Part shown: positions 1,075 through 18,287 of the stretch, piece by piece
Position numbering within the stretch: position 1 is the stretch's first letter
How the letters are laid out: each line of letters opens with the position of its first letter
Sequence record: DRR723986_618
Reading direction: 5' to 3' (one strand)
Length of the DNA: 20,000 nucleotides
Program-made: the position numbers and the translations under genes
Notes under the pieces: model-generated
Seen by the model: only the letters and a program-made list of their open reading frames with translations
Database searches by the model: none
What the model was told of the DNA's origin: nothing

Positions 1075-2178
1075 GTGTCTGAAAAACCCACAGCGAGCAG
1101 ACGGCGTAGCCGTCCACAGGCAAAACGCATTGTTATCGCCGGCACAGAGATTATTCCCGGCAGCCGCCAACAGCTGGCGCTGCCGGTCGCCAAGCTCTAC
1201 ACCCATACCGAGCTTTCCATCACCATCAAAACCGTGCGCAGCAAACGCGAGGGGCCAACCCTCTTTGTCAGCGCCGCCATTCACGGTGATGAAATTAATG
1301 GCGTAGAGATTGTCCGGCGCCTGCTCCAGCATCGCTCCCTGCGCTCATTGCGCGGCACCTTGGTCACCATACCCGTGGTCAATGTACACGGTTTTCTGAA
1401 CAACAGCCGCTACCTGCCCGACGGCCGAGACCTCAACCGGAGCTTCCCCGGCTCGCCCAAAAGCTCATTGGCGGGCCGTATTGCCCACAGTTTTTTCAAT
1501 GAAGTGGTTGCCCATTGCGACTACGGGATTGACCTTCACACCGGCGCTCGCCACCGCGGAAACCTGCCGCAAATTCGCGCAGACCTTCAAGACGAGCGCA
1601 CCCGCGCGATGGCCGAAGCCTTCGGCGCCCCGGTAATGCTGCACGCGAAAACCCGCGACGGCTCACTGCGCGAGGTGGCGAATGACCAAAAGATACCCAT
1701 TCTGCTGTATGAGGCAGGGGAAGCACTGCGCTTCGACGAGGTAGCCATTCGGGCCGGTGTGTCGGGGATTATCAACGTGATGCGACAGATTGGCATGTTG
1801 CCCGCGTCCCGCAGCAAGCGCCCAAAGCGCACGCCGATGGTGACCGATCAGTCTTACTGGGTACGCGCCAGGGTTAGCGGCGTACTGAGAGCACTCGTTC
1901 CCCTGGGCGCATTCGTCAAGAAAGATGAGGTTATTGCCGTTATCTCTGATCCTATCGGCGATAGTAGCGGGGACGTCGAGATCGTAGCAAATGATGCCGG
2001 CATCGTTATCGGCCGCACCTATCTGCCGCTGATCTACGAGGGCGACGCGCTCTTTCACATCGCCAAATATAAAGCGGATATCGACGAGGCCCTGCTGCAC
2101 TACAACGAAATCATGGAAGCTTTTGAGCCAGAGGCCTCCCCGCCCGCACCCGGCGAAGACCCTCCGATCGCCAGCTAA
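1075..2178 (+). CDS. Succinylglutamate desuccinylase/aspartoacylase family (M14 ASTE/ASPA-like) metallopeptidase
   Basis: Zn motifs AAIHGDEING, RDLNRSFPG, IDLHTG and catalytic YEAG, plus a C-terminal barrel-sandwich-like domain. GTG start with GGAG RBS at 1062-1065. Confidence 0.9.
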   Translation: MSEKPTASRRRSRPQAKRIVIAGTEIIPGSRQQLALPVAKLYTHTELSITIKTVRSKREGPTLFVSAAIHGDEINGVEIVRRLLQHRSLRSLRGTLVTIPVVNVHGFLNNSRYLPDGRDLNRSFPGSPKSSLAGRIAHSFFNEVVAHCDYGIDLHTGARHRGNLPQIRADLQDERTRAMAEAFGAPVMLHAKTRDGSLREVANDQKIPILLYEAGEALRFDEVAIRAGVSGIINVMRQIGMLPASRSKRPKRTPMVTDQSYWVRARVSGVLRALVPLGAFVKKDEVIAVISDPIGDSSGDVEIVANDAGIVIGRTYLPLIYEGDALFHIAKYKADIDEALLHYNEIMEAFEPEASPPAPGEDPPIAS

Positions 2179-3383: not shown

Positions 3384-3474
3384 TGTTGTCCTTATTATTT
3401 ATCAGCGTCTCACCTCGTTTTATCATATTCTCCATTAAATGAAAGCCCGCATGTGTCGAGATAAGCTCCTAGCC

Positions 3475-3503
3475 TTGCCCACTGGCGCGCGACAACCTAA
3501 GCT
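3475..3503 (+). promoter_or_regulatory. Candidate sigma70 promoter for xerC
   Basis: TTGCCC (3475-3480), 17 nt spacer, TAAGCT (3498-3503), 26 nt before the xerC ATG. Confidence 0.35.
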
Positions 3504-3529
3504 GAGACCTTCGAACACAGGCCAACCGT

Positions 3530-4423
3530 ATGCTCGAACAGGAAATCCGGCAATTCCTTGACTATCAGCGCGATGTCCGACGGCTTTCCCCCCATACAGT
3601 GGAGGCCTACCAGCGCGACCTGAGCAAGCTCGCCAATTATTGCCAAGAGCGCAAACTGACGCACAGCGACGCGCTCGACGCCGCCCATATCCGCCAGTTA
3701 ATTGCCCAGCAACGAAGCAGTGGCGCCTCTCCGGCGAGCATCCAGCGGCAACTGTCATCACTGCGCAGTTTTTACCAGCATCGCCAGCGCGATTTCGGTG
3801 CGAAGAAAAACCCCGCCAGTGGAATCGCCGCGCCGCGACGGGGGCGCCCCCTGCCTAAAACACTCAATGCAGAAGCGATAGCGCAATTGCTTGCCTTTCC
3901 GGGAAGTGAGCCGATTGATCTGCGTGACCGCGCCATAATGGAGTTGTTTTATTCATCGGGCCTGCGTCTCGCTGAGCTTGCCGACCTAGATGTCAACGAT
4001 ATTGATCTGCGCGAAGGACTAGTTGCGGTCACCGGCAAAGGGCGCAAGAGCCGCACACTCCCTGTGGGCCGGCTGGCATGCCAGGCAGTTAAGAGCTGGC
4101 TGCGCTGTCGCCCCCAGCCGGAAGACACCGCCCTCTTCACCAGCATGCGCGGCGGGCGCCTCGGCCACCGCGCAATTCAGGGTCGCATCAAACTTCGTGC
4201 CCGGCAACAAGGTATCCCTGAAAACCTTCACCCACATATGCTGCGGCACTCCTTTGCCAGCCACCTATTGGAATCCAGCAGCGACTTGCGCGGCGTACAA
4301 GAATTACTGGGTCACGCAAACTTATCCACGACCCAGGTATATACGCACTTGGATTTTCAGCACCTCGCCAAGGTTTATGATCAGGCTCACCCCAGAGCGG
4401 GACGCAAAACCAGAAAGGACTAG
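3530..4423 (+). CDS. xerC: Tyrosine recombinase XerC
   Basis: SPHTVEAYQRDL, RDRAIMELFYSSGLRLAEL, GKGRK and HPHMLRHSFASHLLESSSDLRGVQELLGHANLSTTQVYT (R-K-H-R-H-Y catalytic set), C-terminal YDQAHPRA, followed by a YigB-like HAD gene as is typical. Confidence 0.95.
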   Translation: MLEQEIRQFLDYQRDVRRLSPHTVEAYQRDLSKLANYCQERKLTHSDALDAAHIRQLIAQQRSSGASPASIQRQLSSLRSFYQHRQRDFGAKKNPASGIAAPRRGRPLPKTLNAEAIAQLLAFPGSEPIDLRDRAIMELFYSSGLRLAELADLDVNDIDLREGLVAVTGKGRKSRTLPVGRLACQAVKSWLRCRPQPEDTALFTSMRGGRLGHRAIQGRIKLRARQQGIPENLHPHMLRHSFASHLLESSSDLRGVQELLGHANLSTTQVYTHLDFQHLAKVYDQAHPRAGRKTRKD

Positions 4424-4425
4424 CC

Positions 4426-5133
4426 ATGGCACGCATTCGCGCAATTAGCTTTGATCTCGACGACACACTCTGGCCAAGCCGCCCGGTGCTGGAGTCCGCA
4501 GAGCGCGTGTTTCAGCAAAAAGCACTAGAGCTTGCACCAAAGCTCGCGGAACATTACCCCGCCGAAGCGCTGCGCGAGCATCGCCTGGCGTTATTGAAGC
4601 AGCAACCCGCACTGCGTCACCAGATCAGTGAATGGCGTCGACTCAGTTTGGAACTTGCCCTGCGCGATTGCGGCTATGGCGAGCAGAGTCCCGAGATCGC
4701 TGCCGAAGTCTTTACTCACTTCATTGCAGCTCGCCAAAATGTTCAACTCTTTCAGCATGTGGAAGAGGTGTTACGCGCGCTTAGCGAGCGATTCCTTTTG
4801 GTCAGCTTAACCAATGGCAACGCGGACCTGCGCATGCACCCCTGCAGTCGACATTTTCACGCCTGCATAAAAGCGGAGGACATCGGCATTAGTAAACCCG
4901 ACCCTGCTGCCTTTCACGCCGCGCTTGCTGCCGCCGGCTGCGCTAAGGGTGAGTTGCTTCATATTGGCGACCACCCACGGGATGATATTGACGGCGCGCA
5001 GGGGGCGGGCTTAACCAGCATTCAAGCACTTATGCCCGGGATTGGCCGCGAAAAGCACACGGGGGCTCACGGCCACTTTACAGATTGGCGCGAGCTACCC
5101 ACGCTTATCGAGCAGATTGAAAATATGCGTTAA
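4426..5133 (+). CDS. HAD-IA family hydrolase (YigB-like phosphatase)
   Basis: Motif I FDLDDTLW, motif II LTNGN, motifs III/IV KPDP...HIGDHPRDD. Starts 2 nt after the xerC stop. Confidence 0.92.
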   Translation: MARIRAISFDLDDTLWPSRPVLESAERVFQQKALELAPKLAEHYPAEALREHRLALLKQQPALRHQISEWRRLSLELALRDCGYGEQSPEIAAEVFTHFIAARQNVQLFQHVEEVLRALSERFLLVSLTNGNADLRMHPCSRHFHACIKAEDIGISKPDPAAFHAALAAAGCAKGELLHIGDHPRDDIDGAQGAGLTSIQALMPGIGREKHTGAHGHFTDWRELPTLIEQIENMR

Positions 5134-5327
5134 ACGCCGTCTTGATCAGCATCCGCATGCCCGCTGCGCATATGCGGCTCAAGCTCAGTAATATGACCAC
5201 CGTGCGCCAGGAATTCAGCGACGTCCCTAGCGAGTTGCTCCCGCATACGGTCGTGACTCGTCAGCGGCTCATTCACGCCTAAGCCAAGGTGTTTTTTTGT
5301 ATCACCGCCTCGAACTTTTGATCCCAT
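5130..5327 (-). CDS. Small SutA-like RNA-polymerase-binding protein (65 aa)
   Basis: REQLARDVAEFLAHGGHITELEP resembles the SutA core RDALAKAMEEFLSRGGKVQEIEP (recalled). The ATG at 5327 has a GGAGGG RBS. Position between xerC-HAD and amtB-glnK matches sutA in Pseudomonas. Confidence 0.7.
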   Translation of the reverse strand: MGSKVRGGDTKKHLGLGVNEPLTSHDRMREQLARDVAEFLAHGGHITELEPHMRSGHADADQDGV

Positions 5328-5368
5328 CAGCTTACCCTCCGCGTTGGAGAACAATCAGTCGTCACCGC

Positions 5369-5398
5369 TTTATACTGCGACCCCAGCCGGGCTGACAA
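5369..5398 (-). promoter_or_regulatory. sigma70-type promoter for the SutA-like gene
   Basis: Minus strand TTGTCA, 18 nt spacer, TATAAA. Confidence 0.5.
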
Positions 5399-5482
5399 GC
5401 GCCTTATTAGGCTTTTTCGTTATGTCACTCAGGCAATATCTACTCAAACAATAATAATGCGTTGATTGACGAACATTCAGGC

Positions 5483-5508
5483 AAAAAAAATGGCGCCGAA
5501 GCGCCATT
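5483..5508 (-). terminator. Rho-independent terminator after the second PII gene
   Basis: Minus strand AATGGCGC-TTCG-GCGCCATT running into a T8 tract, with a C(UUCG)G tetraloop. Confidence 0.9.
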
Positions 5509-5527
5509 CACTAAAAAGCTCTGCCGG

Positions 5528-5908
<381 letters not shown>

Positions 5909-5926
5909 CTAGGCCCAGTACCCTTG

Positions 5927-5941
5927 GCAAGCATAGCGCCA
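5927..5941 (-). promoter_or_regulatory. sigma54 (-24/-12) promoter upstream of the second PII gene
   Basis: Minus strand TGGCGC-TATGC-TTGC with exact GG-N10-GC spacing, 60 nt upstream of the ATG and just downstream of the amtB terminator. Confidence 0.6.
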
Positions 5942-5967
5942 TTGCTGCAGCCTATCCCTACAACGGC

Positions 5968-5991
5968 AAAAGGGCGCCGCAAGGGCGCCCT
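5968..5991 (-). terminator. Probable intrinsic terminator after amtB
   Basis: Minus strand AGGGCGCC-CTTGC-GGCGCCCT running into TTTT. The U tract is short, so it may be leaky. Confidence 0.65.
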
Positions 5992-6011
5992 GATCAAAAG
6001 GAGGCGTTGAC

Positions 6012-7271
6012 TTAGCTCTTCACAAATTCGGGGTATGCTTCCATACCGCAGTCTGCCAAGTCCATGCCTTCGTATTCTTCCTCTTCGGTAACACGGATAC
6101 CCATGACCATTTTCAGTACCAGCCACACTACCAGGCTTGCACCAAATACCCAGCCAAAGATGGTTGCAGCGCCGATCAGCTGACCGCTGAAGCTCGCACC
6201 GTCGTTGGTAACTGGCACCAGCAGCAGACCCAGAAGACCCACAACACCGTGAACAGAGATGGCACCAACGGGGTCGTCGATTTTCAGCTTATCCAGAGCC
6301 AGGATGCTGAATACCACCAGTACACCACCCGCAGCACCGAACAAGGTCGCTTGCAAGGCAGTAGGTGTAGAAGGTTCAGCAGTAATCGCTACCAGACCAG
6401 CAAGCGCACCGTTCAGCAGCATAGTCAGGTCAGCTTTGCCGAATAAGATGCGGGCTACCGCCAGGGCTGCTACGGCACCACCGGCTGCTGCCGCGTTGGT
6501 GTTCAAAAAGACCATGGCAACAGAGTGTGCGTTAGCAGCGTCGCCGAGTTTCAGTACTGAGCCACCGTTGAAGCCGAACCAACCCATCCACAGGATGAAG
6601 GTACCCAAGGTCGCCAGTGGCAGGTTTGCACCGGGGATCGCGTTAACCTGACCGTTTGCACCGTATTTGCCCTTACGAGCACCAAGCAGCAACACGCCAG
6701 CCAGCGCCGCAGCGGCACCTGCCATGTGTACTATGCCCGAGCCAGCAAAGTCAGAGAAGCCAAGGTCGCCGAGGTTATACAAACCGAATACGTCGTTGCC
6801 ACCCCAGGTCCAAGACCCTTCCAGCGGATAGATCACACCCGTCATCACAACCGCGAAGGCCAGGAATGCCCAAAGCTTCATGCGCTCAGCCACTGCACCG
6901 GATACGATCGACATTGCGGTTGCAACGAAGACTACCTGGAAGAAGAAGTCGGAAGCGCCAGAGTATACTGAACCGCCGTCAAAGCCGGCTTCTGCCGAGT
7001 CTGCCAACACGCCTTCAAGGTCGAAGTCGCCAATGCCACTTAGCAAGATGTCACCGCCGTACATGATCGCGTAACCGCACACCAAGTACATGATGCAGCT
7101 GATCGCAAACAACGCGACGTTTTTAGTCAGGATTTCTGTGGTGTTTTTGCTGCGAACCAAGCCCGCTTCTAGCATGGCAAAGCCTGCAGCCATCCACATT
7201 ACAAGTGCGCCACAGACAAGAAAGTAAAACGTGTCCATTGCGTACTGAAGTTCAAAAATTTGATTTTCCAC
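6012..7271 (-). CDS. amtB: Ammonium transporter (Amt family)
   Basis: GFAMLEAGLVRSKN, FFFQVVF, AERMK, DFAGSGIVH, WMGWFGFNGGS, DDPVGAISVHG (twin His), multiple hydrophobic helices. GTG start with GGAGG RBS. Confidence 0.96.
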   Translation of the reverse strand: MENQIFELQYAMDTFYFLVCGALVMWMAAGFAMLEAGLVRSKNTTEILTKNVALFAISCIMYLVCGYAIMYGGDILLSGIGDFDLEGVLADSAEAGFDGGSVYSGASDFFFQVVFVATAMSIVSGAVAERMKLWAFLAFAVVMTGVIYPLEGSWTWGGNDVFGLYNLGDLGFSDFAGSGIVHMAGAAAALAGVLLLGARKGKYGANGQVNAIPGANLPLATLGTFILWMGWFGFNGGSVLKLGDAANAHSVAMVFLNTNAAAAGGAVAALAVARILFGKADLTMLLNGALAGLVAITAEPSTPTALQATLFGAAGGVLVVFSILALDKLKIDDPVGAISVHGVVGLLGLLLVPVTNDGASFSGQLIGAATIFGWVFGASLVVWLVLKMVMGIRVTEEEEYEGMDLADCGMEAYPEFVKS

Positions 7272-7341
7272 TGGGATTCCTCCGGAAAAATTTGGGGGCC
7301 TACTGCTTTACCACCACCGCGTGGCGGGTAGCCCGCTACTC

Positions 7342-7692
<351 letters not shown>

Positions 7693-7741
7693 CTAATAGC
7701 CTTGAGGGCAGGCGGGCACTGGAGTACCCGCCGCGATCTAA

Positions 7742-8440
7742 TTACAGGCTTTTTGAGATAGAGAAGATGGCACGGTCTTCAGTGTTATCGTTGTCTGCGT
7801 CGATATCTGTTCCAACATAGGCCAGGGACAGAGTTACGCCGGCAACGTCATAATTCACGCCGATCAAGTAGTCGATGTAAGTGTCATCCGAGTCAACCTG
7901 ATTATCATCTTCGGTCATAGTTTGGCCAATATGAAAATCGACGCTCACGCCTTCCTGCACAGCCAGGCTGTAATCTAGGCTGATCACTGTGGCATCGCCT
8001 TTACCGTCGCCAAAGTACTCGGGTGAATAAACCAGACCCGCGGTGAAATCACCGTAAGATACTGACGCTACGTACTCCTGATAATTGGAAGCAGACTCCG
8101 CACCGGGGTAGGTAAACTGCCAGAAAGACAGATCGACACTAACGTTCTCACTGGCATCAAACGCGTAGCCAACGTAGTAGTCTGTCTCTGTGCTGTTTTG
8201 CTCGACTGAGCTCTTGCCGTCAGAAAAGTTAACGCTAGATGCCCAAACCCCGACATAAGCTCCAGATTCAAAGCCATAGTCGAACCCGCCTTGAATCGCC
8301 ATTTTTTCATTTGTTTGTGAAACACCACGGAACGAGTAATCACTAGTCCAAGTTACATTCCCGCTAATATCACCAGCGTGAACAATCATAGGAGCAGATG
8401 AAATCGCCGCTACACCAAGCATTTTTTTCCAAGTGTTCAT
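7742..8440 (-). CDS. TorF family (TIGR02001-type) putative outer-membrane porin
   Basis: Signal peptide ending VHA, N-terminal SDYSFRGVSQT...AIQGGFDY...GVWASSV motif, beta-barrel-like C-terminus FSISKSL. This family is commonly found upstream of glnK-amtB. Confidence 0.88.
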   Translation of the reverse strand: MNTWKKMLGVAAISSAPMIVHAGDISGNVTWTSDYSFRGVSQTNEKMAIQGGFDYGFESGAYVGVWASSVNFSDGKSSVEQNSTETDYYVGYAFDASENVSVDLSFWQFTYPGAESASNYQEYVASVSYGDFTAGLVYSPEYFGDGKGDATVISLDYSLAVQEGVSVDFHIGQTMTEDDNQVDSDDTYIDYLIGVNYDVAGVTLSLAYVGTDIDADNDNTEDRAIFSISKSL

Positions 8441-8518
8441 GTTCTAGTCTCCGATAGTCTTCTCTCGTTGAACGTATGCGGTTAAGGGAAGGCCCTGAAC
8501 ATCACATGCCTAGCTATA

Positions 8519-8534
8519 TGCATGGGGCGTGCCA
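8519..8534 (-). promoter_or_regulatory. sigma54 promoter of the porin-glnK-amtB operon
   Basis: Minus strand TGGCAC-GCCCC-ATGCA with GG-N10-GC spacing, about 80 nt upstream of the porin ATG. Confidence 0.8.
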
Positions 8535-8636
8535 GGTTTTAAAGCGCCCAAAATCAGGGCTTTCCCGCCACAAAACACCCCATCACACCCCTTTCCGCAC
8601 TATTTCAGATCACAAAACAACAACACACCTGAGTTA

Positions 8637-9097: not shown

Positions 9098-10576
9098 ATG
9101 CCACTGGCCACTGTACACAGCCGTGCGCGCCTCGGGGTAGATGCCCCGCTCGTCACCATTGAGGTGCACCTTTCCGCCGGGCTTCCGGCCTTTAATATTG
9201 TCGGGCTGCCGGAAGCAACCGTACGCGAAGCCAAAGACCGCGTGCGCTCGGCGCTGATCAACTCTCACTTTACCTTTCCCGTCAGCCGCATCACCGTCAA
9301 CTTAGCGCCAGCAGACCTGCCCAAAGAGGGCGGCCGCTTTGACCTGCCTATCGCCATAGGCATCCTCGTTGCCAGCGGCCAATTACAACAACGCGAGACC
9401 GAGTCCTATGAGTTCATCGGTGAGCTGGGGCTAAGCGGCGAGCTGAGAACGGTCAATGCCGCCCTGCCCACCGCCCTGGCAACCGCAGACGCATCCAGGC
9501 AATTGGTCTTGCCCGCCGGCAGCGCCTCACTGGCAGAGCTGCTCCCCCCGGATACATTGCAGGAGGCCACAGACCTGCTTGGCGTGGTGGCTTTTCTAAA
9601 GGGCCAGCAGAGTTTGGGGCCGCCGACAGACGCCGCCGATACACGGCCCGCTGCGTATCCGGACATGCGCGATGTACGCGGTCAGTTGTTGGCAAAGCGT
9701 GGGCTGGAGATCGCTGCAGCGGGATTTCACAGCCTGCTATTTAGCGGCCCTCCCGGTACGGGCAAAACGCTGTTAGCAAGCCGGCTGCCCGGTATCCTCC
9801 CGCCCCCAACAGAGCAGGAGTGTCGCGAAATCGCCATTGTCCAGTCGATCGTTGGCCAACCACTGCAGCTTCAGCGCCCATTTCGCAACCCACATCACAC
9901 CGCCTCGGCCGCTGCGCTTGTCGGCGGCGGTAGTAGCCCGCGCCCCGGCGAAATCAGCCTTGCTCATCGCGGCGTGCTTTTCCTCGATGAATTGCCAGAG
10001 TACCCACGCAAAGTGCTGGAAGTACTGCGCGAACCCATAGAATCGGGCGAGGTGGTCATCTCCAGAGCGCGCCATCAACTCCGATTCCCGGCTCGATTCG
10101 CTTTGGTAGCGGCAATGAATCCTTGCCCCTGCGGCTTTGACGGCGATCCCCAAAAAGCTTGTCGTTGCACCCCCGACCAAATACTGCGCTATCGCAGCCG
10201 TGTATCGGGGCCGTTGTTGGACAGGATTGACTTGCGCCTGCGCCTGAATCGCATGGCCGCCGGTGAGCTACAAGACAGCCCCGAGGGCGAACCCAGCGAC
10301 GCCATACGCGCCCGAGTGAGTGCAGCGCATCGGCGTCAGCTCAACCGCCAGGGCTGCAGCAACGCCTTACTTGATGCCGGCCAGCTCAGCCGGTTTTGCC
10401 CCTTGGATACCGAGGGTAAAGCCTTTATCCGGGACATCGAAGCGCGCATCAACCTCAGTGCGCGCGGCCAGCACCGCCTGATAAAGACGGCGCGCACCAT
10501 CGCTGACCTGGAAAGCAGCAACGATATTTGCCTTAAGCACTTGCGCGAGGCCGCGCTCTACCGCGGAGAGCTCTGA
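9098..10576 (+). CDS. comM: YifB/ComM family Mg-chelatase-like AAA+ ATPase
   Basis: IVGLPEATVREAKDRVRSA, ITVNLAPADLPKEGGRFDLPIA, Walker A GPPGTGKT, PFRNPHH, LFLDELPE, AAMNPCPCG, SGPLLDRID. Confidence 0.93.
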   Translation: MPLATVHSRARLGVDAPLVTIEVHLSAGLPAFNIVGLPEATVREAKDRVRSALINSHFTFPVSRITVNLAPADLPKEGGRFDLPIAIGILVASGQLQQRETESYEFIGELGLSGELRTVNAALPTALATADASRQLVLPAGSASLAELLPPDTLQEATDLLGVVAFLKGQQSLGPPTDAADTRPAAYPDMRDVRGQLLAKRGLEIAAAGFHSLLFSGPPGTGKTLLASRLPGILPPPTEQECREIAIVQSIVGQPLQLQRPFRNPHHTASAAALVGGGSSPRPGEISLAHRGVLFLDELPEYPRKVLEVLREPIESGEVVISRARHQLRFPARFALVAAMNPCPCGFDGDPQKACRCTPDQILRYRSRVSGPLLDRIDLRLRLNRMAAGELQDSPEGEPSDAIRARVSAAHRRQLNRQGCSNALLDAGQLSRFCPLDTEGKAFIRDIEARINLSARGQHRLIKTARTIADLESSNDICLKHLREAALYRGEL

Positions 10577-10667
10577 TCCCAGGTAGGTGACTATACGAAT
10601 CTATTTCACAGCCATCGGCACTTACAATCGAGCACTATATAAGAAGAACTTCTAGGATTTCGGAGTT

Positions 10668-11906
10668 ATGCCGAATGTTTTGATCGTCGAGGACAACCGC
10701 TCGCTGGCCAGCATGGCCAGAGCAATTATCGAGGATATTCCCGGCTTTCAGGCCTGCGTCGCTGCCAGCGGCGCCGAAGCAAAACAGTTAATACGCGACA
10801 CCAAAACGCCCTTTACCGCCGCCCTCGTCGACTTGAACCTACCTGACGCCCCCAATGGCGAAGTGGTGCCAGTGGTGCAATCCTTTGACATCCCCGTGGT
10901 GGTGCTAACCGGCTTCTTCGGCGACGAGTTGCGCAACCGCATGATCGAGCTCGGTGTTGTCGACTATGTGCTAAAGAAGAACATTAGCGCCTATGACTAT
11001 GCCAGCCGGCTGGTCGAGCGCATTCATCGCAATCGCAGCACGCAGGTATTAGTTGTCGATGACTCGCCATCGACCGCCGCCATGCTGAAGCGCCATTTGG
11101 AAATTCAATGCCTGAATGTGTTGGTTTGCCACAACGGCCAAGAGGCCCTCGACTGTATTCGCGAGCAACCCAATATCCGCCTGGTACTGACTGACTACAA
11201 TATGCCGGTTATGGACGGCTTCGACTTTATTCAACAAGTGCGCGCCAAGTACGCAAAGGATCAACTGGCCATCATTGGCCTGTCCAGCTCTAGCGACGCG
11301 CGGCTGTCCGCTCATTTTTTAAAAAGTGGCGCCAATGACTTTATTAGCAAACCCTTTGGCTACGAGGAGCTGCTCTGCCGGGTAAACCAAAACCTGGAAT
11401 ACATGGATCGCATCGACGAGATACGAGACGCGGCAAATCGCGACTACCTGACCAAACTCTACAACCGCCGCTATTTTTTCAGTGAGGCGCAATTGCGTCA
11501 TCAGCAAGCGCAATTTCACGACCTTCCCCTGTCGGTTGCCATGCTGGATATCGACCATTTCAAGCACATTAATGACAGCCTCGGCCACGACGCCGGCGAC
11601 ACGGCGCTAAAACATATCGCTGGGCTGCTGCAGTCGGCCTTCCCCGACGACCTGATCGCCCGTTTCGGCGGCGAGGAGTTTTGCATACTCAGCGAGCAAA
11701 ATGCCGAACACACCTTTGATCGACTCGACGACTTTCGCCGCAAGCTGGCGAGTAATCCCGTTAAAGAAAACGGCTACGATATTACGCTGTCCGTCAGCGG
11801 CGGCCTGAGTAATGGCCAAGATGACAGCCTGGATACACTGATAAAAATGGCTGACAGCAAGCTGTACCTAGCGAAAGAATCCGGTCGCAATCGCATTGTT
11901 GTGTAG
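10668..11906 (+). CDS. Response-regulator diguanylate cyclase (REC-REC-GGDEF)
   Basis: Two receiver domains (VLIVEDN..LVDLNLPD..LTG..VLKK and VLVVDDS..LTDYNMP..LSS..ISKP), then DYLTKLYNRR, DIDHFKHIND, GHDAGD, ARFGGEEF, KESGRN. Confidence 0.93.
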   Translation: MPNVLIVEDNRSLASMARAIIEDIPGFQACVAASGAEAKQLIRDTKTPFTAALVDLNLPDAPNGEVVPVVQSFDIPVVVLTGFFGDELRNRMIELGVVDYVLKKNISAYDYASRLVERIHRNRSTQVLVVDDSPSTAAMLKRHLEIQCLNVLVCHNGQEALDCIREQPNIRLVLTDYNMPVMDGFDFIQQVRAKYAKDQLAIIGLSSSSDARLSAHFLKSGANDFISKPFGYEELLCRVNQNLEYMDRIDEIRDAANRDYLTKLYNRRYFFSEAQLRHQQAQFHDLPLSVAMLDIDHFKHINDSLGHDAGDTALKHIAGLLQSAFPDDLIARFGGEEFCILSEQNAEHTFDRLDDFRRKLASNPVKENGYDITLSVSGGLSNGQDDSLDTLIKMADSKLYLAKESGRNRIVV

Positions 11907-11909
11907 GGC

Positions 11910-12902
11910 TTAAGCCAATTGCTTGCGCCACTGGCTTGGCGACACCCCCGTCCACACTTTGAAGGCCCGACTAAATACCGCCAGCTCAGAATAACCCAAG
12001 CTCAAAGCCAGCGTTGTCAGGTCAATATCGCTGTGCGCTAAATGCTCGCAGGCCAGGTATTGGCGGCGCGCGGACAGCACCTCGGCAAAGCTGCTTCCCT
12101 CGCGCTGCAGGCGCTGCTGAAGACTCCTCGGGTGCAAACCCATCACCCTAGCCACCATGCTTAAGCTGCACTCTCCCGTTGGCAGCAACGCCGTTATCGT
12201 TTGATCCAACTGCTGGCGCAGGCTTAACGAGGCCGGCTCAGATGCGCCCCGCCACTGCGCGCTTAAGCGTGAGCGCAGGCCGGGCTCTACATCGACCGGC
12301 GAGCTCATCAGCGACAATGGATAACGCAGTGCATCGCAGCCCTCATCGGGCTCTACCCGGCAGCCAAACAGCGCCGAAAGCTCCGCCGCCGCAGGTGCCT
12401 GCGCTCGCAGGGCCAGGGAGTCCGGACGCACGGGGGAGCTCTGCAACTGCTCCAAGCAACGCGCCAACAACGCCAAACTCAAGCCTGCCAGCTGCCCGCA
12501 ATCCACCACCGAGGCGAAAGCAAAGTCCATGCGTATCTCGATGAATCGCTCGCTGGATATTGCGCTAACCACCACACCCCTGGCATGAAAATCGAGGTTA
12601 CGCTGCATCATTCGCAGGGCATCGGCTATAGTTGCCTGCAAACACATTGCCGAACCCAGCGCCCCCACTGCCTCTAACCCCTGGCGCATTCCCAACTGCA
12701 CCCCAAAATCCTCGCGCCCACAGCGTTCGGCGGCAGCCGTCATTAACTGTGCTAAGACGGTGTAGGAAAGGTATAGATCCGGGTCTTGCACCACCGCCGG
12801 CGTCAAACCAAATTCCGCCATCAGCGCATTGGGATTCTGACCGCAATCCCGTACCCACTCAGAAAAGCCCAGTAGGGCGCCACTTCGAACAAAATGCTGC
12901 AC
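11910..12902 (-). CDS. AraC/XylS family transcriptional regulator (Arabinose_bd_2/OruR-like N-terminus)
   Basis: C-terminal double HTH: LSMVARVMGLHPRSLQQRL...LALSLGYSELAVFSRAFKVWTGVSPSQWR. The start is probably GTG 12902 because the alternative TTG 12923 lies inside the putative operator. Confidence 0.9.
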   Translation of the reverse strand: MQHFVRSGALLGFSEWVRDCGQNPNALMAEFGLTPAVVQDPDLYLSYTVLAQLMTAAAERCGREDFGVQLGMRQGLEAVGALGSAMCLQATIADALRMMQRNLDFHARGVVVSAISSERFIEIRMDFAFASVVDCGQLAGLSLALLARCLEQLQSSPVRPDSLALRAQAPAAAELSALFGCRVEPDEGCDALRYPLSLMSSPVDVEPGLRSRLSAQWRGASEPASLSLRQQLDQTITALLPTGECSLSMVARVMGLHPRSLQQRLQREGSSFAEVLSARRQYLACEHLAHSDIDLTTLALSLGYSELAVFSRAFKVWTGVSPSQWRKQLA

Positions 12903-12906
12903 GGCA

Positions 12907-12945
12907 GACTCGTGTTTTATCAAATAATGACTCGCAATATATCAA
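12907..12945 (+). promoter_or_regulatory. Tandem direct-repeat operator (putative AraC-family binding site)
   Basis: GACTCG-TGTTT-TATCAA (12907-12923) and GACTCG-CAATA-TATCAA (12929-12945), 22-bp period, between the regulator and its divergent operon. Confidence 0.7.
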
Positions 12946-13011
12946 GCCTAACCATAAAAACGTAGATAAGCTCCAGTCTGCAATAACGCTAATAATTAGG
13001 AGGCGCTCACC

Positions 13012-13530
13012 ATGCTCCCCAAACCCGCTATGGATCACAAAGCATTACTCACGCTAAACACCCACGAAATGCCCATGTACAAAGATGCCTTGCCAGGCGT
13101 TCCTGGTGTTGATGCGCAACCCCTGTTCCTCGATCCCCATCAGGGCATTTGGGTGCTACGCGCCGTCTTTCACCCCGGCGTCGTCTTGCCCAAGCACTAC
13201 CATACCGGCACGGTGCATCTGTTCACCCTGTCGGGCAGCTGGAACTATGTGGAATACCCCGACCAACCCCAAACTGCAGGCAGCTACCTCTATGAACCCG
13301 GCGGCTCTATTCACCAATTTACGGTGCCCGCAGACGCCAGCGAGCCAGCCGTTGCCGTGATGGTGGTTTATGGCGCCAACGTCAATTTCGACGATGAAGG
13401 CAACTACCTCGGTATTATGGATGCGAGCGATATCATGCATATGTTTGACGAGCTAGTCGCCGAGCGCGGCATGGAACCCGCCCGCTATATTCGCCCCGCC
13501 GCTGCCGACTACACGTGCCCCACAGCATGA
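13012..13530 (+). CDS. 2,4'-dihydroxyacetophenone dioxygenase-family (ChrR-like cupin) protein
   Basis: Cupin metal motifs LPKHYHTGTVHLFTLSGSWNY and GSYLYEPGGSIH. Strong AGGAGG RBS. Confidence 0.8.
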   Translation: MLPKPAMDHKALLTLNTHEMPMYKDALPGVPGVDAQPLFLDPHQGIWVLRAVFHPGVVLPKHYHTGTVHLFTLSGSWNYVEYPDQPQTAGSYLYEPGGSIHQFTVPADASEPAVAVMVVYGANVNFDDEGNYLGIMDASDIMHMFDELVAERGMEPARYIRPAAADYTCPTA

Positions 13531-14513
13531 CCACAGCGCCACTGCCAAAGCGGGTATTCATCACCGGCGCACAAGGCTTTATCGGCCAGCAGTTAATGAC
13601 GCGCTACCGGGACCTCGGCTGTGACGTGCGCGGCATGGACTTGCAGGGCAATCCAGAGCAAGGCATCGTCGCCGCCGACCTCTGCCAGCCCAAGCAGTGG
13701 GCCCACCATGTGGAGGGTTGCGAGCTATTCATACACACCGCAGCGGTCGTGTCACTGTCGGCATCATGGGCAGACTATCGGCGCATTACCGTTGACGGCG
13801 TGCGCCACGCCTTGGCAAATGCGCAACGCGCTGGCTGTCGGCGCTTCGTGCACTTCTCTTCGATTCTTGCGATGGGCTATGACTACGTTGATGGCGCTGA
13901 CGAGCAGGCTCCTGTCGTGATTGGCAAGCATTGCCGCTATGGTGTTGCCAAAGGTGCCAGCGAACACCTGGTGCTCGCCGCCCACGCCAGCAGCAACATC
14001 GACTGCTGCATTATTCGCCCTGGCGACGTTTATGGTCCTGGGTCGCGAGCCTGGCTGCTCGAGCCCCTTAAAATGGCGCGATCCGGCAGGCTTTTGTTGC
14101 CCAATGGCGGTCGCGGTATCTTTACGCCCATCTATATCGACGATCTGATAGACGGCACGCTGCTCGCGGCGCACAGCGAGGTGGCCAGCGGGCAAATTTT
14201 CATCCTGTGGGGAGAGCAAGCCGTCAGCTGCGGGGAGTTTTTCAGTTACCACTGGCGCTGGGCGGGGCGCCGCGGTCGACCACCCAGCCTGCCGCTGCAG
14301 GCCGCCATTCCCCTAACAAAAGCAATACACACCTTTAATCGATGGCGCGGCGTGCGCGATGAGGCCTGCCCGGATACGATGCGCATGTTCAACCGAAAAG
14401 GGGCCTTTAATGGCCGTAAAGCCCGGGAATTATTTGGATTTGAGCCCAAAGTCTCCCTCGCTGAGGGCATGGAATATTCAGCGCAGTGGCTTCGTGAGAT
14501 CGGCGAGCGCTAA
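13527..14513 (+). CDS. NAD-dependent epimerase/dehydratase (extended SDR, 3-beta-HSD-like)
   Basis: ITGAQGFIG, HTAA, VHFSS, YGVAK (YxxxK), IRPGDVYGPG. ATG 13527 overlaps the cupin stop (ATGA). Confidence 0.9.
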   Translation: MTTAPLPKRVFITGAQGFIGQQLMTRYRDLGCDVRGMDLQGNPEQGIVAADLCQPKQWAHHVEGCELFIHTAAVVSLSASWADYRRITVDGVRHALANAQRAGCRRFVHFSSILAMGYDYVDGADEQAPVVIGKHCRYGVAKGASEHLVLAAHASSNIDCCIIRPGDVYGPGSRAWLLEPLKMARSGRLLLPNGGRGIFTPIYIDDLIDGTLLAAHSEVASGQIFILWGEQAVSCGEFFSYHWRWAGRRGRPPSLPLQAAIPLTKAIHTFNRWRGVRDEACPDTMRMFNRKGAFNGRKARELFGFEPKVSLAEGMEYSAQWLREIGER

Positions 14514-14528
14514 AGGCGAAATAACACT

Positions 14529-15347
14529 ATGAAAACACCCCCTCATTGTATTATCTCCGGAGGCGCCAGCGGTCTCGGCCTTGGACTGGCACTTCGTTTG
14601 CTCGAGCGCGGCTACTGCCTCAGTATTCTCGACCTCTCATTTGGCGAAAGCGCCAAGCAGCAGCTGTCACAAGCCGCCGCATCAAGCGCGCATTGGCAGG
14701 CCTACACCGTGGATATTCGCAATGCGCAGGCCTGCGCAGAAGCCGCTGCCAGAGCGGCAGACAACTATGGCACTATCGAGCTGGCAATCAACTGTGCCGG
14801 GGTCATACTCAACTGCCGGTTTGCAGAGATGACCGCCGAGGACTTTGCCCGCGTTGTTGAAATCAACCTCTGCGGCAGCGTGCACTTTGCCAGTGCGGTA
14901 TTGCCCCACATGTCGGCGGGCAGTCGCTTAGCACTGGTTGCTTCAATGGCAGGGCTGGTCAGCAACTATGGCTATGCTGCCTATGGCGCGTCCAAGTTCG
15001 GGGTTGTCGGCTTAGCGACCACACTGCGCTATGAGTACGAGCCTCTTGGAATTGGCATCTCCTGTATTTGCCCACCCGAGGTCGAGACGCCCATGGTTGA
15101 GAGTGAGCGCCAGCATGGGGACCCGATCTCTCTGGAGCTTAAAAAATTCGCCGGTTCACTGGATACCAACACCGCACTTAACGGCATAATGCGCGGACTG
15201 GATACGGGTCGCTGGATGATCATTCCCGGTGTGCGCAGTCGTTTTACGGCGTCCCTTGCCAGATACTTTCCGTGGCTTTTTAACCGAGTTATGCAGTCCA
15301 TGATCCGCCGCCTGCTGCACAAAGGCCACCATAGGAGTTCACCGTGA
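14529..15347 (+). CDS. Classical SDR oxidoreductase (3-ketodihydrosphingosine reductase-like subgroup)
   Basis: SGGASGLG, INCAG, ASMAG, YGYAAYGASKF (YxxxK), CPPEVETPM. The ICPP.V.TP segment is typical of KDSR-like SDRs. Confidence 0.85.
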   Translation: MKTPPHCIISGGASGLGLGLALRLLERGYCLSILDLSFGESAKQQLSQAAASSAHWQAYTVDIRNAQACAEAAARAADNYGTIELAINCAGVILNCRFAEMTAEDFARVVEINLCGSVHFASAVLPHMSAGSRLALVASMAGLVSNYGYAAYGASKFGVVGLATTLRYEYEPLGIGISCICPPEVETPMVESERQHGDPISLELKKFAGSLDTNTALNGIMRGLDTGRWMIIPGVRSRFTASLARYFPWLFNRVMQSMIRRLLHKGHHRSSP

Positions 15348-16171
15348 CACCCGAACGCCATACTTTCAGCCACCGAGGACTTCACCTGTCCTATTTAGAC
15401 TCCGCTCCAAATGATCACCTACGCCCGGCTGTACTGCTGCTGCATGGTTTCCCTGACCACGCGGAAATGTGGCAGCCGCAAATACAGGCTCTGCACCAAG
15501 CGGGCTTTCGCTGCATTGCCCCGGACACCGTAGGCTGTGGCCATTCCGAGATTGCCCCCAAACAAAGTGATTATCATGCCGACAACATTATCAGCGATCA
15601 TCTGGCACTGCTTAAGCACCTAAAAATCAACCAGAGCCATGTGGTCGGCCACGACTGGGGAGCCGTTATCGCTTGGCTATTGGCGGCGAAGCATCCTAGC
15701 AGTGTCCAGCGCCTGGCGGTTATGTCGGTCGGCCACCCCACCGTTTATGCTCGCGCGGGTTGGGGCCAAAAACGCGCGGGCTGGTATACCTTGTTTTTCC
15801 AGCTGCGCGGCCTGGCGGACAGGCTACTCGTCGGCAACGGGCGCTTCTCCCTCCGCCAGATCTTTGGGTCCCACCCGAATATGGACGAGGTGATGTCGCG
15901 TTTACGCCAAGCCGGCAGAATGCGTGCCGCAGTGCGCATTTATCGCGCCAATTTTGCCGAAATACTACTGCGCAAGCAGCCGCCTGTTACCGCGCCGACA
16001 CTCGGTTTGTGGAGTGCACGAGATGCTTTCTTAACCGAGGATCAAATGCGCGACTCTGCAGCGTGGGTTAACGGGCCGTGGCGCTACCAAAAGCTCGACG
16101 GTGGACACTGGATGAGCCTCAGCCAGACCGAGACCGTAAACGCGTTATTGCTCGAGCACTTTTGCACTTGA
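15344..16171 (+). CDS. Alpha/beta hydrolase, epoxide hydrolase-like
   Basis: HGFP oxyanion motif, GHDWG (Asp nucleophile), lid tyrosines in GWY and IYRA, acid Asp in RDAFL, His in GGHW. GTG start overlaps the SDR stop (GTGA). Confidence 0.88.
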   Translation: MTPERHTFSHRGLHLSYLDSAPNDHLRPAVLLLHGFPDHAEMWQPQIQALHQAGFRCIAPDTVGCGHSEIAPKQSDYHADNIISDHLALLKHLKINQSHVVGHDWGAVIAWLLAAKHPSSVQRLAVMSVGHPTVYARAGWGQKRAGWYTLFFQLRGLADRLLVGNGRFSLRQIFGSHPNMDEVMSRLRQAGRMRAAVRIYRANFAEILLRKQPPVTAPTLGLWSARDAFLTEDQMRDSAAWVNGPWRYQKLDGGHWMSLSQTETVNALLLEHFCT

Positions 16172-16240
16172 CGTCCCGCCCTCAGTAAAGAAACAGCTGC
16201 GCTCAGCGCGTGGATAGCGGTGTCGAATTAACGATGGCAC

Positions 16241-16249
16241 TGCTACAAT
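16241..16249 (+). promoter_or_regulatory. Extended -10 promoter candidate for rep
   Basis: TG-C-TACAAT, 31 nt upstream of the rep GTG. Confidence 0.45.
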
Positions 16250-16280
16250 TGCCAGCCTTTTTTCGGCCCAGTGATTTAGC

Positions 16281-18287
16281 GTGAGCAAACTCAACGATCG
16301 ACAACGCGAGGCGGTTCTGTACATCGACGGCCCGCTGCTGGTATTAGCCGGTGCAGGCAGCGGCAAGACCAGTGTTATCACGCGCAAGATGGCCTATTTG
16401 ATCGAAAAATGCGGCATTCCCGCCCGGCATATCGCGGCGGTTACCTTCACCAACAAAGCGGCCCGCGAAATGAAGGAACGAGTGGGCACACTCGTCAAAG
16501 GCAAAGCCGCTCACGGCCTCACCGTGTCGACCTTCCACAACCTCGGCATGAATATCCTGCGCCGTGAATACGCCGCACTGAAATACAAATCGGGCTTCTC
16601 AATTTTTGATGCGCAAGATGCCCAGGCCCTGATTCGCGACCTACTTATTCAAGAACACGGCAGTGACGGCGATCAAGCAGACCGTATCCAGCAACGTATT
16701 TCCCATTGGAAAAACGAGTTCGTTATGCCCGAGCAGGCCGTCGCTGAGGCGGAAGGCCCCGCTGACATGCTCTGCGCCCAGGCTTACATTCGCTACCAAA
16801 AAGCGTTGAAAGCCTATAACGCCCTGGACTTCGACGATCTGATCCTGTTGCCAGCGCTGCTGTTTGAGCAGCACCCCGACATCCTCGACAAGTGGCGCAA
16901 TAAAATTCGCTACATGCTGGTCGATGAATATCAGGATACCAATAGCGCGCAATATACGCTGGTGAAGCAATTGGTCGGCGACCGGGGCGGCCTCACCGTG
17001 GTGGGGGATGACGACCAGTCCATTTACGCCTGGCGCGGCGCAAAACCGGAAAACCTGTCACTACTAGGCAAGGACTACCCTCACCTGAAGGTCGTCAAGC
17101 TCGAGCAAAACTACCGTTCTACCGCGCGCATTCTTAAAGCGGCCAATACCGTTATCGCCAACAATCCCCACGAGCTGAACAAGGCACTGTGGTCCGACCT
17201 GGGCTTTGGCGACCCCATCCGCATTATTCGCTGCCGCAATGAAGATGCCGAAAACGAGCGGGTGGCAGTCGAGATTCTCGACCACAAGATTCGCACCGGC
17301 GGTCGCTTTGGTAATTACGCCGTGCTGTATCGCGGCAACCACCAGTCACGCCTGCTGGAACTCAAACTACAAAGCCACCAAATACCTTACAAGCTGAGCG
17401 GCGGTACCTCCTTCTTTGGTCGCAACGAGATCAAGGACATCATGGCCTATCTGCGGCTTATCATTAACCAGAATGATGACAACGCCTTTCTGCGCATCGT
17501 CAACGTGCCGCGCCGCAAAATTGGTACCTCAACACTCGAAGCCCTGGGGAGCTACGCCACCGAGCGGGAAATTAGCCTATACAGCGCCTGCGAGGAAATG
17601 GGCTTGGCTCAACGACTGCCGGAATCGGCCATCACCCGCCTGCGTGAGTTCACTCAATGGCTGGACGGGATGCGGCGGCGCTGCTACGAAGATGACGCCA
17701 TCGCAGCCGTTAAACAGCTCTGCAACGATATCGACTATCTGGACTGGCTGATACAAAACAGCTCATCGGTCGCCGTCGCCGAACGACGCATGAACAATGT
17801 GCACACCCTTATTGCCTCGCTGGAGCAAAACCTCAACGACGAGGAACGCGACGAGAGCTTTGAGGAAGCGATCAGCCGACTGGTGCTCCGCGATTTAATG
17901 GAGCGCCAGGCCGACGAGGAAGAAAGTGCCGACCAAGTGCAGCTGATGACACTGCACGCTGCAAAAGGCTTGGAGTTTCCCCACGTGTTTATGATCGGCA
18001 TGGAGGAAGGGCTACTACCTCACCAAAACAGTATCGACGATGACATGGTGGAAGAGGAGCGACGGCTCTGCTACGTCGGTATCACTCGCGCCCAGCGCAC
18101 GCTGACGATGACCTACTGCGCCAAGCGCAAAAGCTTCGGTGAATTTACCAGCTGTGACCCCAGCCGCTTTTTAGCTGAGCTGCCGCAGGATGATGTCGAG
18201 TGGGAAGGTCGCGCCGATGCCGACCCGGCGCAAAATCAAAAACGCGGCGGTGAAACCTTGGCCAGCCTGCGCGACATGCTTGGCTGA
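16281..18287 (+). CDS. rep: ATP-dependent DNA helicase Rep
   Basis: 668 aa with LVLAGAGSGKT, AVTFTNKAAREMKERV, VDEYQDTN, VGDDDQSIYAWRGA, LEQNYRS, LYRGNHQSR, LMTLHAAKGLEF and YVGITRAQ. Rep-specific signatures, no UvrD C-terminal Tudor tail. Confidence 0.96.
   Translation: MSKLNDRQREAVLYIDGPLLVLAGAGSGKTSVITRKMAYLIEKCGIPARHIAAVTFTNKAAREMKERVGTLVKGKAAHGLTVSTFHNLGMNILRREYAALKYKSGFSIFDAQDAQALIRDLLIQEHGSDGDQADRIQQRISHWKNEFVMPEQAVAEAEGPADMLCAQAYIRYQKALKAYNALDFDDLILLPALLFEQHPDILDKWRNKIRYMLVDEYQDTNSAQYTLVKQLVGDRGGLTVVGDDDQSIYAWRGAKPENLSLLGKDYPHLKVVKLEQNYRSTARILKAANTVIANNPHELNKALWSDLGFGDPIRIIRCRNEDAENERVAVEILDHKIRTGGRFGNYAVLYRGNHQSRLLELKLQSHQIPYKLSGGTSFFGRNEIKDIMAYLRLIINQNDDNAFLRIVNVPRRKIGTSTLEALGSYATEREISLYSACEEMGLAQRLPESAITRLREFTQWLDGMRRRCYEDDAIAAVKQLCNDIDYLDWLIQNSSSVAVAERRMNNVHTLIASLEQNLNDEERDESFEEAISRLVLRDLMERQADEEESADQVQLMTLHAAKGLEFPHVFMIGMEEGLLPHQNSIDDDMVEEERRLCYVGITRAQRTLTMTYCAKRKSFGEFTSCDPSRFLAELPQDDVEWEGRADADPAQNQKRGGETLASLRDMLG

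Follow-up and report, generated by a model that had tools for sequence, protein, structure and literature searches.

What task is served by four enzyme genes that lie on one strand, divergent from an AraC-type regulator gene, in a Spongiibacter genome, and does a single substrate link them? The question is raised by a 20,000-nt stretch of DNA from sequence record DRR723986_618 (the window, by which we mean the whole stretch), which is Spongiibacter marinus-like, that is, S. marinus or a very close relative; its cupin is 100% identical to that of locus L001. An earlier note on the window had described four co-oriented genes with a divergent AraC gene, and had proposed that they turn an epoxide, by way of a diol and an alpha-hydroxyketone, into products of oxygenolytic C-C cleavage. 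Open reading frame (ORF) and Pfam analyses bore out the gene layout and its coordinates, with the features of the locus as follows (DAD, 2,4'-dihydroxyacetophenone dioxygenase; 3CJX, a PDB entry; SDR, short-chain dehydrogenase/reductase; HSD, hydroxysteroid dehydrogenase):

11910..12923, minus strand, AraC/XylS-family regulator gene (ORF; Arabinose_bd N-terminal domain and HTH_18)
12910..12945, plus strand, candidate AraC operator, direct repeats (intergenic alignment and pattern search)
13012..13530, plus strand, Cupin_7 gene, 172 aa, DAD / 3CJX family (ORF and Pfam)
13527..14513, plus strand, extended SDR gene, 328 aa, NAD-dependent epimerase / 3-beta-HSD family (ORF and Pfam)
14529..15347, plus strand, classical SDR gene, 272 aa (ORF and Pfam)
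15344..16171, plus strand, alpha/beta-hydrolase-fold gene for a predicted epoxide hydrolase, 275 aa (ORF and Pfam)

The cluster is real, conserved, regulated and built from known enzyme families. We consider it likely that these genes are regulated together as an operon and that their products serve a single oxygenated, hydrophobic substrate. The fuller reading developed below, that of an inducible, AraC-activated catabolic operon in which a largely hydrophobic substrate with vicinal oxygenation would be unmasked, dehydrogenated and cleaved, is put forward tentatively, as a mechanism that in its entirety falls somewhat short of probable; its chemical steps, their order and the substrate are what we infer.

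All five proteins exceed their Pfam gathering scores (Arabinose_bd with HTH_18, Cupin_7, Epimerase/3Beta_HSD, adh_short and Abhydrolase_1), and the four enzyme genes are intact. The cupin gene is preceded by a strong ribosome-binding site, AGGAGG, and meets the extended SDR gene in an ATGA at 13527-13530 (an alternative start for the latter is a GTG at 13515). A 15-nt gap (14514-14528) separates the two SDR genes, and the classical SDR gene meets the hydrolase gene in a GTGA at 15344-15347, with GGAG ~7 nt 5' of it. Both couplings and the gap were thus seen in the sequence as the earlier note had listed them. Four-base overlaps are frequent in operons and are little proof by themselves; the arrangement is nevertheless not attributed to chance, because it is kept in other species. 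Among 25 genomes of the genus, six carry a cupin about 70-100% identical to that of the window and four carry a 54-57% paralogue, and 15 gave no cupin match at E <= 1e-20. All six genomes with the orthologous cupin have the AraC gene facing cupin, extended SDR, classical SDR and hydrolase genes in unchanged order. Four of the six are less closely related to the window, and in these the proteins are 45-62% (AraC), 69-88% (cupin), 61-73% (extended SDR), 47-66% (classical SDR) and 57-71% (hydrolase) identical to their counterparts.

The proposed chemistry hinges on the cupin, which matches PF12973 (Cupin_7) at 52.8 bits against a cut-off of 27. Its closest solved relative is 3CJX (E 1.1e-46 over residues 10-167), with solved DAD matching at 5bpx, E 6.4e-14, and 4p9g, E 1.2e-13 (roughly 120 residues aligned). 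The iron ligands of DAD are His76, His78 and His114, and its Tyr93 is invariant in DADs (PMC4219425). We mapped residue correspondences by hand, from the printed alignment onto the residues listed in that paper. Cupin H62, H64 and H101 align with the three iron ligands, and by alignment position Y79 corresponds to Tyr93, E95 to Glu108 and W47 to Trp61. In an alignment of the family, W47, H62, H64, H69, Y79, E81, E95 and H101 are invariant in 27/27 sequences, down to 33% identity. We therefore predict from these residues a non-haem Fe(II) C-C-cleaving dioxygenase. The term DAD-type, used in the earlier note, appears valid for the residues that set the chemistry and not for orthology: iron ligands, Tyr and Glu are kept, whereas the protein is nearer to 3CJX than to DAD and its pocket differs. 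Public annotations of cupin relatives read 'DAD family protein', by transfer, and hundreds are so named.

It is very unlikely that the cupin instead performs some other metal-dependent reaction on the dehydrogenase product, such as diketone or enediol cleavage, isomerisation or decarboxylation. Such a role would suit the weakness of the match to DAD (E about 1e-13) and the altered pocket, as well as the invariant H69, a fourth His, and E81, which have no stated role in the available description of DAD; two dehydrogenases could also carry a diol as far as a diketone. Moreover, Cupin_7 is named in Pfam after the cupin-like domain of ChrR, a non-enzymatic anti-sigma factor. Yet the full first and second sphere of DAD (three His, Tyr, Glu and Trp) is family-invariant, and the window protein is a stand-alone cupin of 172 aa from which the anti-sigma domain is absent.

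The last gene of the operon was searched for the residues of an epoxide hydrolase. What tells epoxide hydrolases from haloalkane dehalogenases is a pair of ring-opening tyrosines in the cap, and the earlier note had called the protein epoxide-hydrolase-like, adding that Asp-nucleophile hydrolases with two lid Tyr open epoxides to diols; in an alignment with 13 homologues every catalytic residue was found. The best solved match is 5NG7 (E 2.1e-33); EphA from mycobacteria and soluble epoxide hydrolases from mammals come next. H34-G-F-P37 corresponds to the HGXP oxyanion-hole motif and is kept in 13/13 homologues. D104, D227 and H255 align with Asp101, Asp241 and His270 of CH65-EH (nucleophile and charge relay), and the cap residues Tyr148 and Tyr200, also kept in all 13, align with its Tyr148 and Tyr209; the catalytic residues of CH65-EH and Sibe-EH are described in PMC6198070. 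All nine columns checked are identical in the 13 homologues, whose identity to the window protein is 41-71%. With the full catalytic set present, the protein is a predicted epoxide hydrolase. In four of its long relatives (P0122, P0123, P0125 and P0126; ~760 aa, 40-42% identity), of which two belong to the actinomycetes Kribbella and Flindersiella, the hydrolase is fused to FAD-monooxygenase domains (PF01494, PF01266). These proteins look like a natural pairing of epoxidase and epoxide hydrolase, and their presence among the closest long relatives of the hydrolase would fit an epoxide of oxygenase origin.

Between cupin and hydrolase lie the two dehydrogenases, whose earlier assignment as SDRs holds at the family level, on Pfam scores as well as cofactor and Tyr-x3-Lys motifs. 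Classical SDRs are recognised by a Gly-rich cofactor motif, an NNAG-type motif and a Ser-Tyr-Lys triad, and extended SDRs by TGxxGxxG and Tyr-x3-Lys. The extended SDR (PF01370, 90.7 bits; PF01073, 67.9 bits) has TGAQGFIG at residues 13-20 and YGVAK at 138-142 (Tyr138-x3-Lys142). It reached the cut-off of no NCBIfam equivalog, the HpnA and OleD models lying far below, and its solved relatives are distant. The classical SDR (PF00106, 141.6 bits) has SGGASGLG at 10-17, NCAG at 88-91, Ser139 and Tyr152-x3-Lys156, and matched no specific NCBIfam equivalog.

Taken together, these families suggest a route of three steps. The epoxide hydrolase would convert an epoxide into a vicinal diol; the probable source of the epoxide is one of the many monooxygenases of the host, or else the environment. 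One or both of the NAD(P)-dependent SDRs would then oxidise a carbinol to give an alpha-hydroxyketone, and the second SDR may be there for the opposite stereoisomer or for an additional alcohol or ketone. Finally, the DAD-like Fe(II) cupin would use O2 to cleave the C-C bond between carbonyl and carbinol, yielding an acid and formate from a terminal diol, or two acids from an internal one, for central or beta-oxidation metabolism. The predicted cupin chemistry is set by DAD because this is, to our knowledge, the only characterised enzyme of its family; the predicted products and the four-electron balance are reasoned by analogy with the reaction of DAD, which forms 4-hydroxybenzoate and formate from 2,4'-dihydroxyacetophenone and O2 (PMC10866074). 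As for monooxygenases, P450 family matches number 11-22 per genome in G001, G005, G009, G012 and G015 (3.3-4.1 Mb), some of them partial, so that these are not gene counts; P450 enrichment has already been noted for this ecological group (PMC4391266).

Several observations weigh against this route as drawn. The DAD pocket residues Phe129, Leu135, Trp137, Phe148 and Tyr153 (PMC4219425) are replaced, by the same hand mapping, with M117, N123, N125, M136 and I141 in the cupin. The comparison with Alcaligenes DAD that the earlier note had proposed, made here at the sequence level, thus gave matching catalytic residues and five differing pocket residues. N123 and N125 are nearly invariant across the subfamily of the cupin (alignment of 27), and the substrate may therefore differ from a DAD-type alpha-hydroxyketone. 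As judged from the alignments, the catalytic machinery is DAD-like and the substrate is probably other than 2,4'-dihydroxyacetophenone because the cavity residues are replaced, which speaks against that substrate and not against the chemistry. In addition, the literature search returned no member of the 3CJX subfamily with a published function, the route needs one dehydrogenase and the operon holds two, and the set of aromatic-catabolism genes in cluster-bearing genomes, discussed below, is mixed.

The remaining points on this side concern the hydrolase. We fetched 52 loci of cupin relatives and searched them with the window proteins. The extended SDR gene lies directly 3' of the cupin gene in 24/52 loci, which amounts to 24/27 of those with cupin identity >= 59%, and a classical SDR gene (47-95% identity) follows the extended SDR gene in 12/52 (Spongiibacter, Solimonas, Oleiphilus, Marinobacter and Alcanivorax). 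ORF clustering found an AraC gene of the same domain architecture in 30/52. An epoxide hydrolase gene, however, adjoins the cupin in 4/52 loci, all from Spongiibacteraceae, and most cupin clusters are without it. In the reverse search, 3/80 hydrolase loci hold a cupin within 6 kb (two from the window's own species and one from Fluviicoccus); these counts are lower bounds, obtained with exact peptide patterns that missed S. pelagi-type loci. Beyond the genus, the loci of its nearest relatives (L055-L059, with hydrolases of 57-63% identity) lack a neighbouring cupin, and for this reason the epoxide step is not intrinsic to the module. An Oleiphilus metagenome-assembled genome (MAG; L137, 4511-8722) has genes for an extended SDR (59%), a classical SDR (53%) and a hydrolase (42%) beside a fatty-acid-desaturase-family gene, and this locus contains no cupin. 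From these comparisons, the conserved unit outside Spongiibacteraceae is a cupin, an extended SDR and a third dehydrogenase, with the hydrolase lineage-specific. Whether the genes are conserved together had been posed as a test of the proposal: the five-gene unit is whole in the six genomes of the genus, and the pairing of hydrolase with cupin is the part that does not extend to the wider set of loci.

These counts bring forward a second explanation, unlikely in our estimate though the strongest of the competitors, in which the conserved core of cupin and SDR would break down a diol, polyol or hydroxyketone of some origin other than an epoxide. The Spongiibacter hydrolase would then be a later passenger with a separate role, for example epoxide detoxification, merely sharing the transcript. 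Besides the rarity of the hydrolase next to cupins, this explanation draws on the 77/80 hydrolase-homologue loci without a cupin within 6 kb, and on the core clusters, most of which function without a hydrolase gene. It fits less well with the retention of the hydrolase at the end of the operon, in the same order and on the same strand, in six species at 57-93% identity, or with the overlap of its start and the classical SDR stop. Furthermore, adjacency of classical SDR and hydrolase and of cupin and hydrolase arises independently in other lineages, the paralogous Spongiibacter cluster has a hydrolase gene directly 3' of its cupin gene, and Pseudomonas-type loci have a sulfatase gene nearby.

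The variants of the module illustrate this last point. The paralogous cluster (L164-L167, from G011, G025, G008 and G004, respectively) consists of an AraC gene facing genes for the 54-57% cupin, a serine alpha/beta hydrolase and two SDRs; this hydrolase is related to GrgF and to dienelactone-hydrolase-like proteins, and its nucleophile elbow carries a Ser. Adjacency of classical SDR and hydrolase recurs in the Oleiphilus MAG and in a Salinisphaerales MAG. In Fluviicoccus (L065), a 32%-identical cupin lies directly upstream of a 48%-identical hydrolase, in a region (1555-8556) with an AraC gene, a desaturase/hydroxylase-family gene, a gene for a weakly START-like protein and then an AraC gene facing a cluster in the order Cupin_7, hydrolase, 219-aa protein and Zn-dependent alcohol dehydrogenase (Zn-ADH). 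The 219-aa protein, which has no Pfam or NCBIfam match, recurs 3' of the hydrolase in the Sphingomonadales locus L067. In Pseudomonas-type loci, a Zn-ADH fills the third position after cupin and extended SDR, and in Shewanella a Zn-ADH gene stands beside the cupin gene with the extended SDR absent. The best NCBIfam models for the Pseudomonas and Shewanella Zn-ADH proteins, all below cut-off, are scyllo-inosose, threonine and idonate dehydrogenases, enzymes that oxidise a secondary alcohol adjoining another functional group. A sulfatase gene lies within a few kb of the cupin gene in 11/52 loci (ten Pseudomonas-type and one from Variovorax), and DUF1254/DUF1214, DUF1302 and DUF1329 genes often neighbour the Pseudomonas-type clusters (L003-L017). 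Such neighbours hint that the substrate is sulfated and that it is taken up through an outer-membrane system. Simpler versions occur in Marinobacterium (AraC facing cupin, SDR and SDR) and Photobacterium (AraC facing cupin and SDR). The best reading of these genomic patterns is that AraC, cupin, extended SDR and a third dehydrogenase would make up an ancestral, widespread module and that the hydrolase would be its exchangeable front end, as supported by the swap of epoxide for serine hydrolase between related clusters and by the sulfatase near Pseudomonas-type clusters. The epoxide-to-cleavage route of the earlier note makes chemical sense and has partial support. It keeps its enzyme families and catalytic residues; its epoxide step is a lineage-specific addition, and a single dehydrogenase would be enough for it.

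What, then, might the oxygenated hydrophobic substrate be? An aromatic compound, as in DAD, seems unlikely to us. It could be a styrene-oxide-type epoxide or a lignin-derived phenylpropanone; an epoxide of the styrene oxide type, for example, would pass through phenylethanediol and 2-hydroxyacetophenone to benzoate and formate. The sole characterised relative does act on an aryl alpha-hydroxyketone, and a DAD-like gene was the most induced gene in Novosphingobium sp. MBES04 exposed to a lignin beta-O-4 model compound (PMC10866074). Some ring-cleavage and ring-hydroxylating genes are also found in cluster-bearing genomes, where the aromatic-catabolism families give a mixed picture that favours neither an aromatic nor an aliphatic substrate: PF00775, the intradiol dioxygenases, in 1/5 genomes, PF00848 in 3/5 and PF02900 in 5/5. 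On the other side, the aromatic residues that line the DAD pocket are replaced in the hand-mapped cupin, the rarity of intradiol dioxygenase speaks against ring catabolism, and no locus examined has aromatic-catabolic genes beside the operon. The neighbours found there point to lipids instead: PqiA/MlaD in Marinobacter, an acyl-CoA ligase in S. pelagi, an enoyl-CoA hydratase with a CoA-transferase in G005, and elsewhere DUF1302/DUF1329, a START-like protein and an FA_desaturase. Many of the hosts, namely Alcanivorax, Marinobacter and Oleiphilus, are marine degraders of aliphatic hydrocarbons. From neighbours and hosts, an aliphatic or alicyclic substrate seems more likely than an aromatic one.

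A bolder extension of the unmask, dehydrogenate and cleave reading, which we regard as improbable though worth stating, is that in the 3CJX-type cupin we would have the first dioxygenase of aliphatic acyloins (alpha-hydroxyketones), and with it a modular route of wide occurrence. There, an interchangeable hydrolase (epoxide hydrolase, sulfatase or esterase) would free a vicinal diol on a lipid or terpenoid, an SDR or Zn-ADH would make the acyloin, and O2 would split it into two acids. Such a route would involve neither a Baeyer-Villiger monooxygenase nor CoA activation.

Regulation by the divergent AraC gene, claimed in the earlier note, gains support from the intergenic region. The protein combines an N-terminal PF12625 domain (87.5 bits) with a C-terminal double helix-turn-helix (PF12833, 65.8 bits), and scored below the NCBIfam cut-offs for QhpR, GliR and CypR, the best being QhpR at 162 bits against a cut-off of 250. 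A direct repeat of the form TCGnRwwwwATCAA occurs as TCGTGTTTTATCAA at 12910-12923 and TCGCAATATATCAA at 12932-12945, 22 bp from start to start, and the block proves conserved when the intergenic regions of the five Spongiibacter clusters are aligned. As annotated, the AraC gene starts at a TTG that overlaps the first repeat. The Pfam domain starts 7 residues later than in the Marinobacter homologue, and translation may in fact begin at an in-frame GTG, codon 8, at 12902; we base this on the shorter N-termini of homologues, and both repeats would then be intergenic. The pattern, which was derived after seeing the data, has two sites in the 20-kb window against 0.01 expected. It was found in 23/167 fetched loci (Spongiibacter, Solimonas, Shewanella and paralogous clusters), with 144 lacking it, and in the mapped subset of the 23 the matches that can be placed sit just upstream of the cupin operon, in the intergenic region on the AraC side. 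Among the paralogous clusters, L164 and L166 have one upstream copy of the motif, and the pattern search was negative in L165 and L167. It was also missing from the clusters of Marinobacter, Alcanivorax and Pseudomonas, where AraC identity is as low as 25-29%. The repeat is likely to be the operator of the AraC protein, and the AraC control predicted from gene order is to this extent backed by a conserved, operator-like element in the divergent promoter region. A promoter and terminator scan of 11700-16400 returned nothing in the divergent region, and its totals (two promoters against 2.1 in shuffles, two terminators against 4.6) did not exceed those of shuffled sequence. All operon genes are covered in part by contigs (95-99+% identity) from four marine metatranscriptome runs, and some of these contigs span the junctions of extended with classical SDR and of classical SDR with hydrolase. 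As contigs prove no single transcript and DNA carry-over is possible, they speak weakly for expression; the gaps in their coverage of the operon are likewise no evidence of silence.

How does the cluster compare with known systems? Literature searches, which covered sources other than subscription-only literature, returned no characterised pathway with this gene set, in agreement with the earlier note, whose author knew of none. DAD of Alcaligenes sp. 4HAP (PDB 4P9G and 5BPX; PMC4219425) has Cupin_7 and the iron-site residues in common with the window cupin, but it is a distant match with five differing pocket residues and is not an orthologue; SDR, epoxide hydrolase or AraC partners of DAD in the genome were not found described in our literature search. 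The entry 3CJX ('protein of unknown function with a cupin-like fold'), which the one paper that our search found to name it used as a molecular-replacement model, falls in the same subfamily as the window cupin by its E of 1.1e-46. Cupriavidus loci with cupins of 51-54% identity have a context of LacI, SDR, glyoxalase, TctC, SnoaL and MFS genes that is unlike the window operon. CH65-EH and Sibe-EH (PDB 5NG7 and 5NFQ; PMC6198070) possess the same catalytic set as the window hydrolase; they are stand-alone metagenomic biocatalysts, whereas the window hydrolase is the last gene product of a conserved operon.

Another likeness, one of composition alone, is to EphD of Mycobacterium tuberculosis, an epoxide hydrolase fused to a classical SDR that acts on lipid epoxides (epoxymycolates and 9,10-epoxystearate; PMC7998700). 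EphD is a fusion, whereas the window has two genes with the SDR first, and the available description of EphD gives it no cupin partner. PRK05855 (578 positions) is the best NCBIfam match of the hydrolase, with 116 bits at positions 6-283, and the classical SDR scores 96 bits at 317-506; from this two-domain layout we infer that the model represents EphD-like fusions. We rejected an identity of the pair as a split EphD, since 116 and 96 bits stand against a cut-off of 455, and keep EphD as an analogy. No fusion of hydrolase with SDR occurred among seven long hydrolase relatives (E <= 1e-20), which, being sampled candidates, are weak evidence of absence. Cluster G-II of Novosphingobium sp. MBES04 has four genes headed by the DAD-like gene and is induced by the lignin beta-O-4 model compound; its other three genes are called hypothetical (PMC10866074), and the partners in the window are SDRs and a hydrolase. 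The Novosphingobium cupin loci that we fetched (43-47% identity), which may or may not include G-II, contain no extended SDR, classical SDR or hydrolase. Searches on Alcanivorax, alkenes, epoxide hydrolases and diols yielded reviews only, as judged by titles and the openings of abstracts, and a non-exhaustive search of the CAI-1 and quorum-quenching literature, with one review consulted, gave no enzyme that degrades alpha-hydroxyketone quorum signals.

The surroundings of the operon bear on how it came to lie where it does. The flanking genes, identified by Pfam, and the gene that separates them from the regulator are:

9098-10576, YifB-type Mg-chelatase-like ATPase gene, flank (Pfam)
10668-11906, plus strand, GGDEF response regulator gene with two receiver domains, between yifB and the AraC gene
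16281-18287, UvrD/Rep helicase gene, flank (Pfam)

The location between yifB and rep, noted earlier, is thus confirmed as to its flanks, with the addition of a GGDEF gene that had gone unmentioned. Its product is PleD-like (NCBIfam CbrR model, 234 bits against a cut-off of 600). Among the cluster-bearing genomes of the genus, the yifB and rep flanks are kept only in the near-identical relatives of the window and in G009, and in the latter the cluster lies between them without the GGDEF gene, which we therefore place outside the conserved unit. In the other three diverged genomes with the cluster, the 11-15 kb that we fetched include neither yifB nor rep. Where the cluster is lacking, the distance from yifB to rep is 106 bp in G003, and other DNA lies between them in G010 (2.7 kb) and G007 (4.0 kb). 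Because all six genomes keep the whole set while flanks and presence vary, the five genes are, on this comparison, an accessory unit that appears to have been moved and retained whole, the GGDEF gene excluded. Base composition across the cluster has no clear anomaly, so no recent foreign origin is proposed. The yifB-rep junction (10577-16280 in the window) is a variable site in the genus, and in G013 yifB matches in two pieces ~7.3 kb apart, as if split by an insertion. The GGDEF gene has the longest and deepest metatranscriptome contigs, at a depth of 19-411 against <= ~40 over the operon, figures that cannot rank genes. The remaining genes of the window are housekeeping genes (RimK, a desuccinylase-like protein, an XerC/D-type recombinase, a HAD hydrolase and an ammonium transporter), and an Rfam scan of the whole window gave no match at gathering thresholds.

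Here, as in many gammaproteobacteria of sea and soil, relatives of DAD are encoded alongside dehydrogenases in a module that is both conserved and regulated. Identifying the substrate would assign a function both to the orphan structure 3CJX and to a recurrent gene cluster, and the conserved operator together with the AraC sensor offers a direct way to the inducer. Were the substrate to prove an ordinary diol, this would be a routine catabolic operon. An aliphatic acyloin dioxygenase, if that is what the cupin is, could destroy the CAI-1-type alpha-hydroxyketone quorum signals of marine vibrios. More broadly, the module could reveal a means of cutting vicinally oxygenated lipids or terpenoids with O2, which would be relevant to marine hydrocarbon and lipid turnover and to biocatalytic C-C cleavage.

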